Assembly (NCBI RefSeq): GCF_003334335.1
Contig: NZ_QOWQ01000063.1
Direction: 5' to 3' (one strand)
Source of the DNA: Escherichia coli
GTDB lineage: Bacteria; Pseudomonadota; Gammaproteobacteria; Enterobacterales; Enterobacteriaceae
DNA length: 11,674 nt
Shown: positions 1-3,000 of the stretch, piece after piece
Layout: each line of letters begins with the position of its first letter
Numbering within the stretch: the first letter of the stretch is position 1
Position numbers: made by a program

Positions 1-3000
1 ATGTCAGACAAACTCATAACGCTGGCGAAGATCCTCTGTGTAATTGTCGGCATTTCATTTTCACTAATGCTGGTTGCCATTTTCTTTTCCACCGCCTGGC
101 GAGTCCTGACGTTATCGGGACTGGTGGGGTGAAAGAGAGATGAGCCGTGTTCTGTGTGTGGTGATTATTGTCCTGGCGGGTGGCTGTGGTGCGCTGTGGC
201 TGGCAACAGACCATTACCGCGATAACGCCATCACCTACAAAGCGCAGCGCGATAAAAAAGCCAGAGAGCTGGAGCTGGCAAACGCCACCATTACTGATAT
301 GCAGGTGCGCCAGCGCGATGTTGCTGCGCTCGATGCAAAATACTCGAGGGAATTAGCCGATGCGAGAGCTGAAAATGAAACTCTGCGTGCTGATGTTGCT
401 GCTGGTCGTAAGCGCCTGCGGATCAACGCCACCTGCTCCGGTACCGTGCGTGAAGCCACCGGCACCTCCGGCATGGATAATGCAACCGGCCCCCGACTGG
501 CAGACACCGCTGAACGGGATTATTTCACCCTCAGAGAGCGGTTGATGATGATGCAGAAGCAGCTGGAAGGGGCACAGGAATATATCCGCACTCAGTGCCT
601 GAAATAAGTTTTGCTGATGCGCCGTATCGTCGCAGTATTCCCGCATTAACAGAGACCTCAGCCAGACACTGGACCTCCTGCGCGAGTGTGTGGGGATAAT
701 CAAAAACGATGCACACCGGGCTTTCCACGTTTTCAGGTAACGTGAGCGTTTTCCCGCATGGCCGCCTGTCCGGTGCGGTGGTGGAAGAAACCGGATAAAA
801 CAACCATATTGTGTAAATATCAATCAAACAAGACGCTGCTGTGTGAATTCTGAAAAATCACAGCGGTCATTATGCGTCAGTTTTTAACAGAGGACGTCAG
901 AAAGTGACATGGCAAAGCTGGACTGGAAAAAACTGGAGCAGGCATTCCGACGCGAACATGCCGAAACGGGAATAACATTACTGGAGTGGTGCCGTAAGAA
1001 AAAGATTAATTACAACACCGCCAGAACCCGTATAAAAATGGGCAAAATCGATCATGAAATCGATCATAAAACCGATCATGAAATCGATCATGACATCTCA
1101 GATGAAGAACCCAGCAATGACGCGGGTTCCGACGATGAAAAATGCGCAAAAAATTCTGAAAAAAACTGCGCAAATTCGGCAGAAACGAAACGCAACAGCA
1201 GATCGGGCAATCCTCACCCCGTTGCCCGGTTTAGCGACCGTAACACCCACGCCGTGAGACACCGTGGATATGCGAAGTATCTTGAGGCAGATAACCTCAT
1301 GGATGATGCGTCCGATATGGTGCTGTTCGATGAACTGGTGTTCACCCGTGCCCGCGCACTTTCAGTAACAGGAACACTGAAAAAAATGTTCGCCGACCTG
1401 AAAGAGGCGGCTGACGTGGAAACCCGTGTTGCCCTGTACGACAAAATACTCAAAGCAGAACAGGCCCTTGACCGGAATATTGCCCGTATCGAGTCAATTG
1501 AACGCTCATTGCTGACGCTGGACGTTCTGGCGGAAACAGCACCAAAACTTCGTGCTGACCGGGAAAGAATCAACGCTGCCAGAGATAAACTCAGAGCGGA
1601 AACCGATATTCTGACCAGCCAGCGTCGGGGCGTTGTTACGCCTGTCAGTGACATCGTGTCATCGCTGCATGAAATGAGTAATTCGGGGAGACTGGATGAC
1701 ATTCCGGAAGAATGAACCGCGATGTGATGAACCGTCAGAAATGACCGGGACCGAACAACGTCTGTTCATCATGACTAAACTGAGCAATCCCTGGTGGCGG
1801 CTCAATCATCTCTACAAGATACAGAACGAAAAAGGTGAGCTGGTCACCTTCAGAATGCGACCGGCGCAGCGCCAGTTGTTCCGGAGCATGCACAATAAAA
1901 ATATTATCCTGAAAGCACGCCAGCTGGGGTTTTCCACGGCCATTGATATTTATCTTCTCGACCAGGCATTATTCATACCGCATCTCAAATGCGGGATTGT
2001 CGCTCAGGATAAACAGGCTGCCAGTGAAATTTTCCGCACCAAAATTGCTGTACCGTTTGATCATCTTCCTGACTGGCTGAGAGCCTCATTCACCATCGTT
2101 GAACGTCGTAGCGGAGCCAGCGGTGGCTATATCCTGTTTGGTCACGGCTCGAGTATCCAGGTGGCAACCTCATTCCGTTCAGGTACGGTGCAGCGCCTGC
2201 ATATCTCAGAGCACGGCAAAATTTGCGCAAAATATCCGGCTAAGGCGAAAGAACTGCGAACCGGTACACTTAATGCCGTCTCTGATGAGTGCATTATTTT
2301 TGATGAATCCACTGCTGAAGGTGTGGGTGGCGATTTTTACGAGATGAGTAACCGGGCACAGGAAATCACTGCATCAGGGCTGGCGCTGACGCCACAGGAT
2401 TATAAATTCCATTTTTACGCCTGGTGGCAGGATCTCAAATACAGCGCCAGAGTGCCGGAAAGCGGACTTAAGCTGTCACGGGAAAAAACAGCGTATTTTT
2501 CTGCGGTTGAAAAAGCAATGAACATCACGCTTACCGATGAGCAGAAACACTGGTACATCTGCAAGGAAACTGAACAGCGTGAGGAAATGAAGCAGGAATT
2601 TCCCTCAACGCCACAGGAGGCGTTTCTGACGTCAGGACGACGGGTGTTCAGTGCGGAAAGCACGCTGCAGGCAGAGTCATTCTGTTCGCCACCGCTGATT
2701 GTTTATGACATTGAACCGGTTACAGGAACGAAGACCAAAGCGCAGTCTCTGCGTGACGGGAATAAAGCCGAACAGCACCGGACGCTGATGAATTATCTGC
2801 TGGTCTGGGAGCTGCCGGATCCGGATGAAGAGTATGTATGCGGAGCGGATACCGCTGAGGGGCTGGAGCACGGAGACCGCTCATCGCTGGATATCATCAG
2901 ATGCAGTAATGGTGAGCAGGTGGCTCACTGGTTTGGTCATCTCGATGCGGAGCTTTTCGCTCATCTCATTGCGCAGGTCTGCCGTATGTACAACAATGCG

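Follow-up and report, generated by a model that had tools for sequence, protein, structure and literature searches.

An element resembling a conserved pseudoknotted RNA at the end of the lysis cassette in a Shiga-toxin-phage-like prophage of Escherichia coli

The stretch of Escherichia coli DNA considered here (NCBI RefSeq assembly GCF_003334335.1, contig NZ_QOWQ01000063.1; 11,674 nucleotides (nt), referred to as a whole as the window) represents the late region of a prophage of the 933W / VT2-Sakai-like type (Sepvirinae), related to the Shiga toxin (Stx) phages. Our subject is the gap of 301 bp (608-908) between the end of the lysis gene Rz at 607 and the start of the terminase gene terS at 909. 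As a preliminary description of the sequence had stated, the gap is without a convincing gene: no open reading frame (ORF) within it is conserved, a search of both strands of window 400-1200 yielded neither a sigma-70-like promoter nor an intrinsic terminator, and ARAGORN found no tRNA or tmRNA over the same interval. The two ORFs listed in that description, one of 29 codons at 709-798 and one of 11 codons ending just before terS, are present, as are two long minus-strand ORFs that it did not mention (353-823 and 531-827), neither of which is kept in relatives. The Escherichia phages PhiR5_2 and PhiR12_3 are 100% identical to window 560-960, and 21 E. coli genome records are at least 99% identical to 608-908. 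Judged by its sequence relationships, the gap is made up of two parts with different histories, a block of about 180 nt (618-797) that belongs to the lysis end and a leader (798-908) that belongs to terS. The block looks like a conserved non-coding RNA element of three domains, one of them a pseudoknot, that lies outside any Rfam family.

The edges of the block are sharp. In an alignment of 12 sequences it begins at 617/618 with TGCGC-GTATCGTC and ends at about 797 with GGAAGAAACCGGA, with unrelated sequence on either side, and in phage P13374, which has a Rha-like gene (ORF55) upstream of the gap, BLAST homology also begins at window 617/618. A distant search with 608-908 as the query found the block in at least 433 phage records, the match in long-tailed lambda-like phages being limited to approximately 618-797, and the block was present in at least 413 E. 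coli genomes. Its context was surveyed in annotated phage loci and in 120 viral contigs that contain an exact core motif. Throughout approximately 140 loci the block was located 3' of Rz and in the orientation of Rz, with either nothing between the two or bor (minus strand), a KilA-N gene (plus) or a Rha-like gene (plus). The 3' neighbour is variable and may be a Nu1-type terminase gene, ybcV (minus strand), 933W-type terS or others. This comparison of the junction across related prophages, which the preliminary description had proposed, bears out its suggestion that accessory genes (morons) are inserted here, since bor, KilA-N and Rha-like genes do occur exactly between Rz and the block.

In the O157 933W-type prophages and in HK629 it is bor with approximately 115-125 bp of its upstream region that lies between Rz and the block. 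A tblastn search with Bor was positive in the 933W-type and lambda-type loci and found no coding sequence in the window, in line with the initial impression that nothing bor-like is present, and a bor gene or remnant was therefore rejected. The idea that the gap is a remnant or scar was not borne out, since 618-797 is the element that lambda and 933W carry immediately after their bor cassette; on this comparison the window copy is simply without the bor cassette and is not a bor scar. The block thus shares its junction, between Rz and the next module, with the bor moron of lambda, but in lambda, DLP12 and 933W bor and about 120 bp upstream of it form a separate cassette that is inserted on the 5' side of the block. 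The lambda copy of the block (46866-47037; 107 bits) sits between bor and lambdap78 and that of the K-12 prophage DLP12 between borD and ybcV, each within a 290-bp gap. The lambda and RefSeq records carry no annotation over the block, and in the K-12 RefSeq record the interval from borD to ybcV is devoid of annotated RNA genes.

In the collections searched, the hosts were Escherichia, Shigella, Salmonella and, for one prophage, Intestinirhabdus. A pattern scan of species-representative genomes gave only 17 matches; five of these were due to chance, and several came from mislabelled assemblies that contain E. coli prophage DNA. Near-identical blocks also occur on short contigs labelled Pseudomonas yangonensis, Nanosynbacter, Thiomicrorhabdus and Collinsella; these copies are most likely due to contamination or mis-binning.

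The block is predicted to fold into a long interrupted hairpin (domain I), a second domain with a hypervariable hairpin (domain II) and an H-type pseudoknot (domain III), as detailed in Table 1. A structure of 37 pairs was defined by hand and was tested on a plain MAFFT alignment of 25 representatives, unfitted to the structure. In that alignment 96.4% of the cells were paired, compared with 39-58% in controls with slid partners, and 10 pairs had changed on both sides, a result reached by none of 500 shuffles. A covariance model built from the same alignment and then used to align 84 copies gave 98.2% paired cells, compared with 39-60% in the slid controls; both sides had changed in 14 pairs, again a result reached by 0/500 shuffles. 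The model matched the window at 616-800 with 176.9 bits (E = 2.8e-54). Furthermore, RNAalifold recovered P1, P2 and P5 with compensatory changes from 74 sequences. All five modelled pairs of P4b had changed on both sides, with at least six different stem sequences that are all still complementary, and the same was true of five of the seven pairs of S2/P5. The helix S1 is not in the covariance model and its alignment is therefore unfitted to it; 97.4% of its cells were paired, compared with 22-68% in the slid controls, and 51 cells had changed on both sides. S1 crosses P5, giving the helix order a-b-a'-b' and hence a predicted H-type pseudoknot.

Compensatory changes above both shuffled and slid controls are what is generally asked of a conserved structured RNA, and they were found here. 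The region had been thought possibly to carry signals rather than filler, and this is probably so. The compensatory base-pair changes in the block undo the proposal that a junction identical in relatives would be ordinary spacer, since here conservation is accompanied by them. Several unpaired stretches are also nearly invariant, namely CAUUAAC, GAGUGUG, AUCAAAAACGAU and the pseudoknot loop GGAAGAAA. An all-against-all covariation scan was too noisy and revealed no further tertiary pairs. In the diverged lambda and DLP12 copies P1, P2, P3 and P5 are kept, and P4 and S1 are altered. Rfam 15 gave no match at gathering score over the whole window, and at permissive thresholds only chance-level matches (E ≥ 0.25, far under gathering score) were obtained with the window, Sp10 and K-12 DLP12 copies. 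A full-text literature search for the core sequences of the block found no paper, and searches on junction genes of lambdoid phages, the pseudoknot and covariation found nothing relevant, the gene-name search being obscured by Bordetella.

Table 1. Positions of the genes, predicted helices and other features at the junction between Rz and terS (window coordinates).
Feature	Position	Strand	Remarks
Rz	140-607	+	
Rz1	360-545		embedded within Rz
Variable spacer after Rz stop	608-617	+	place of moron insertion (bor, KilA-N, Rha-like) in relatives; homology starts at 617/618 in phages with another upstream gene
Conserved non-coding, apparently structured element ('lysis-cassette trailer'), ~180 nt	618-797	+	covariance model, 84-copy alignment
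Domain I, long interrupted hairpin	624-712	+	minimum-energy fold, compensatory and wobble changes
P1 (domain I)	624-630 with 706-712	+	
P2 (domain I)	636-646 with 688-698	+	11 bp
P3 (domain I)	657-661 with 678-682	+	one mismatch in window copy
P3b (domain I)	662-665 with 669-672	+	
Domain II	717-756	+	
P4a (domain II)	717-720 with 753-756	+	
P4b (domain II)	726-731 with 739-744	+	hypervariable hairpin
Domain III, predicted H-type pseudoknot	761-796	+	
S1 (domain III)	761-765 with 775-779	+	5 bp
L1 (domain III)	766-767		2 nt; L2 = 0 nt
S2 = P5 (domain III)	768-774 with 790-796	+	7 bp
L3 (domain III)	780-789	+	10 nt, purine-rich, GGUGGAAGAA, nearly invariant
AT-rich leader of 933W-type terS	798-908	+	GC 0.378; shared only with phages carrying this terS
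Leader hairpin	835-867	+	9 bp (835-843 with 859-867), conserved 15-nt A/U-rich loop; z = -2.5 vs shuffles
11-codon mini-ORF (MRQFLTEDVRK)	872-907	+	no Shine-Dalgarno
Imperfect inverted repeat, 18 nt	873-890 with 923-940	+	78% complementary; brackets terS GAGGA (891-895) and ATG (909)
terS	909-1715		
terL	1696-3402		

Existing annotations over the block conflict with one another. On the plus strand, Sakai orf48 has 86 aa and the ORF called by the Prokaryotic Genome Annotation Pipeline (PGAP) has 67 aa, and in phages 1W and PhiR55_1 ORFs of 58-60 aa are annotated on the minus strand. The plus-strand ORF of Sakai and 933W matches PHROG 6954, labelled 'Rz-like spanin', and the plus-strand ORF has no NCBIfam match. 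Among 74 distinct copies of the block, the best reading frame is open in 26 and none is open in a majority, the copies are 168, 170, 174 or 179-183 nt in length and these lengths are not multiples of three, and all of the annotated ORFs are broken in the window copy. A small protein on either strand, whether of PHROG 6954 or of the 1W minus-strand type, was rejected since the frames are not kept and the indels are not in threes. By this comparison of copies, the block is non-coding. It could be argued that the block is ordinary spacer or a decayed small gene (the PHROG 6954 plus-strand ORF or the ~60-aa minus-strand ORF of 1W and PhiR55_1) that has been kept by recent ancestry, which would suit both the ORFs annotated on the two strands and the close relationship of the copies. 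We consider this very improbable, however, because besides the lack of an open frame in most copies and the indels, most substitutions affect the first or second codon position when the alignment is read in the minus-strand frame, the block is kept between lineages with unrelated flanks, and the stems, including the pseudoknot, show compensatory changes. The Stx-phage ORFs named 'Rz-like spanin' (PHROG 6954) or 'hypothetical protein' (WP_001301714.1), at the window equivalent of ~595-855, overlie the structured element and are probably mis-annotations propagated through databases.

The fold also has a direction. Read on the plus strand, the structure had 96.4% of its cells paired, compared with 89.2% when read on the minus strand, and there were 80 G·U cells to 14 A·C cells. 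The minimum-energy fold of domain I reproduced P1-P2-P3 on the plus strand only, with z = -1.0 for the window copy and z = -2.7 for the Sakai Sp10 copy, the minus strand giving z = +0.9. The asymmetry between G·U and A·C together with the plus-only fold of domain I indicates that the fold is read in the late-operon sense, and the block, lacking a promoter, is presumably transcribed together with the rest of that operon. The same evidence bears on whether the block acts at the level of DNA, either as a linker promoting homologous module exchange and moron capture or as a single-stranded DNA structure for late replication or recombination. The block does lie exactly at a mosaic boundary, with differing morons on its 5' side and differing modules on its 3' side, and hairpins with G·T pairs are possible in single-stranded DNA. 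However, a recombination linker requires sequence identity and here the stems change yet stay complementary, in P4b as well as in the crossing pseudoknot stem, while the strand asymmetry of the wobble pairs indicates a transcript. A DNA-level element is thus improbable in our estimation.

We propose that 618-797 may be a sense-strand RNA element of the Q-dependent late transcript that acts in cis as a processing or stability element for the lysis-gene mRNA, and give this reading a probability of roughly 0.4, the processing or stability mechanism itself being our best guess. It is favoured by four properties of the block: it is tied to the lysis module, it is indifferent to its 3' neighbour, it lies in the untranslated tail after Rz, and it contains the interrupted P1/P2 duplex of ~18 bp. 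The block would mark the 3' end of the lysis cassette (S-R-Rz/Rz1 and any moron). With its interrupted hairpin and internal loop (P1/P2/P3), its P4 hairpin, which appears free in sequence with its pairing kept, and its predicted H-type pseudoknot, it could stop 3'-to-5' exonucleases; alternatively, a double-strand-specific ribonuclease of the RNase III type could cut the P1/P2 helix. The lysis-gene mRNA would thereby have a fate separate from that of the following module. RNase III sites comprise some two helical turns of double-stranded RNA in which an internal loop is common, and the geometry of the stem formed by P1 (7 bp) and P2 (11 bp), ~18 bp in all with an asymmetric internal loop of 5/7 nt, fits such a site.

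The closest analogues of the block are the T7 RNase III hairpins, the regulatory H-type pseudoknots and the small RNAs (sRNAs) of enterohaemorrhagic E. coli (EHEC), and none of them fits as a family. The intercistronic RNase III hairpins of T7 (R1.1 type) have an interrupted stem of ~18-20 bp with an asymmetric internal loop. Like them, the block places an interrupted stem between gene blocks of a long phage transcript, and in both a hairpin left at the 3' end would shield the upstream mRNA. The block is far larger, however, with two extra domains including the pseudoknot, and it has no sequence or Rfam similarity to them.

With the H-type pseudoknots, such as frameshift stimulators, the T4 gene 32 operator and small riboswitch aptamers, domain III shares its interleaved stems of 5 and 7 bp, its short first loop, the missing second loop and a purine-rich third loop, and both stems of the block covary. 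In a programmed -1 frameshift signal the pseudoknot is preceded, at a distance of 5-9 nt, by an X XXY YYZ heptamer that lies within an ORF. The block lacks both the upstream ORF and the slippery heptamer and is not a frameshift site: no conserved ORF runs across it, and the sequence upstream of S1 is variable and without a slippery heptamer. Nor does it have a consistent regulated gene on its 3' side or a match to a riboswitch in Rfam.

For a simple barrier to exonucleases, the nearly invariant unpaired nucleotides and the pseudoknot are more than is required, and they favour a protein- or ligand-binding or catalytic role. The chief competitor of a cis-acting processing or stability element is accordingly an autonomous functional RNA that binds a protein or ligand, is freed from the late transcript to serve as a decoy or sponge, or cleaves itself as a ribozyme between the lysis and the morphogenesis genes. 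The near-invariance of the four unpaired stretches, the three-domain architecture with its pseudoknot and the sharp edges that are kept whatever the neighbours would all be at home in such an RNA. We nevertheless hold it to be unlikely, since no Rfam family matches, known ribozymes and riboswitches included, no partner gene co-occurs, no Hfq peak has been reported at the site in the Sakai Stx2 prophage, and the range of hosts is narrow. It is more doubtful still that the block would represent a new class of catalytic or sensing RNA in lambda-like phages, for example a self-cleaving ribozyme that cuts the long late transcript between the lysis and head genes, or an RNA that times lysis by binding a host or phage factor; to this we attach only a slight chance.

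The Hfq-dependent sRNAs of EHEC prophages (AgvB, AsxR and the EcOnc series; Tree et al. 2014, PMC4104026) resemble the block in that they are non-coding and occupy conserved positions within lambdoid late regions. They are, however, only ~50-60 nt in length and lie on the opposite strand with their own promoter and terminator, neither of which the block has, and the block shows no reported Hfq peak in Sp5. The anti-sRNAs AsxR and AgvB were rejected as candidates since they are located between Q and S, or 3' of stx2 (PMC4104026), and not after Rz as is the block. An independent small RNA gene was also rejected, there being no promoter-like or terminator-like site on either strand of 400-1200, no EcOnc peak in Sp5 and no annotation in the K-12 RefSeq record. 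The coordinates in Tree et al. 2014 (PMC4104026) are approximately 136 nt lower than those of NC_002695.2, and the EcOnc positions were corrected accordingly, which ruled out a location of EcOnc10, EcOnc11 or EcOnc12 inside the block. The Hfq cross-linking peaks of these three (in Sp12, Sp10 and Sp9 of Sakai, respectively) are on the strand opposite to the block, ~15-65 nt beyond its 3' end, and in Sp9, Sp10 and Sp12 a minus-strand intrinsic terminator adjoins the 3' edge of the block.

Several observations weigh against a cis-acting processing or stability element, or against the fold as RNA. Folded as a whole, the window copy of the element is no stabler than its shuffles (z = +0.6). This copy also has the P3 mismatch and a 2-nt deletion, and its score of 176.9 bits compares with 190-221 for most relatives. 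In the lambda copy P4 and S1 are lost or changed. The family is shallow, with 72-100% identity, an effective sequence number of 1.51 and approximately six to seven lineages, and because of this close kinship the cell counts overstate the number of independent events. The tolerance of G·T pairs in single-stranded DNA, the excess of invariant unpaired nucleotides over what a barrier needs and the results of cross-linking and analysis of cDNA with Hfq (Hfq-CRAC) point the same way. In the last of these, O157 Sakai lysogens gave no peak at the block position in the Stx2 prophage Sp5 (PMC4104026), in a condition in which the late operon is largely silent.

The second part of the gap has a different history. 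Window 798-1200 is 92-95% identical in approximately 220 Stx-type phages and is found only with this type of terS, while in the same phages the identity of the block is only 84-89%. The leader is AT-rich, as had been noticed: GC content is 0.385 at 790-880 and 0.378 at 798-908, compared with 0.538 for the whole window. The inverted repeat reported within it does exist, with its arms displaced by one position from those first given (GCTGTG at 838-843 and CACAGC at 859-864). Phage GER2 is more distant, and there the leader hairpin has undergone C-to-U and G-to-A changes that preserve its pairing and are pairable on the plus strand only. We suggest that this hairpin probably tunes terS translation or binds a packaging protein. 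The 11-codon mini-ORF was correctly described as ending 1 nt before the terS ATG. The three differences seen among relatives are each non-synonymous, GER2 has GTG in place of its ATG, and by its sequence the mini-ORF is probably not a gene. The 5' arm of the 18-nt inverted repeat lies inside this mini-ORF, and the repeat could couple translation of the mini-ORF to terS initiation.

Another possibility is that 798-908, alone or with the start of terS, is the pac site of a headful-type terminase, with the leader hairpin or the inverted repeat as the binding site of TerS. In other headful phages pac sites lie in or beside terS, and the leader is inherited with terS, is conserved as much as coding sequence, is AT-rich and carries inverted repeats; in addition, the identical terL of PhiR5_2 was labelled 'T4-like headful' by a database annotator. 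Against this, the wobble changes in the hairpin suit RNA and not duplex DNA, and a tandem repeat with GATC sites inside terS is at least an equally good candidate, so that a pac site in the leader seems to us rather improbable. A search of the literature on the pac sites of 933W-type phages found nothing usable.

The tandem repeat within terS has a 12-bp unit, AAATCGATCATG, present 4.4 times at window 1045-1097 and encoding (I/T)DH(E/K/D) repeats, with four GATC (Dam) sites exactly 12 bp apart (1050, 1062, 1074 and 1086). Some relatives are 12 bp shorter across window 798-1192 (383 compared with 395 bp matched), which is one repeat unit, and a second repeat, AAAAATGCGCA, occurs 3.2 times at window 1138-1174. 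The pac site of P1, too, has Dam sites in a cluster, and by this analogy the GATC repeat is a candidate lead for the packaging site. The terS and terL genes overlap by 20 nt (1696-1715). Several database records of related phages were opened at the start of terL, and the ends of these records are therefore not virion termini; a note on genome ends in the phi346 record was set aside since it merely reflects the opening of the record at terL. At the other side of the junction, window 1-132 holds an ORF of 43 aa with a strongly hydrophobic core that stops 7 nt upstream of Rz and is annotated as a hypothetical protein in the identical phage PhiR5_2; from its sequence, it may encode a small membrane protein that belongs to the lysis cassette.

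Provided that the fold is functional, an unannotated structured RNA would end the lysis cassette in lambda, in the cryptic K-12 prophage DLP12 and in the Shiga-toxin phages alike, and a post-transcriptional control point would be added to the textbook late operon. Such a point would bear on the timing of lysis and hence, in the Stx phages, on the release of toxin. A functional fold would further account for the sharp conservation of this module boundary, provide in the block a marker of where the lysis module ends on its 3' side, and allow the recurrent mis-annotation of 'Rz-like spanin' and 'hypothetical protein' ORFs to be removed. Should the block prove to be a new class of RNA, it would have been overlooked for decades in lambda itself, where the hypothesis is directly testable by standard genetics.

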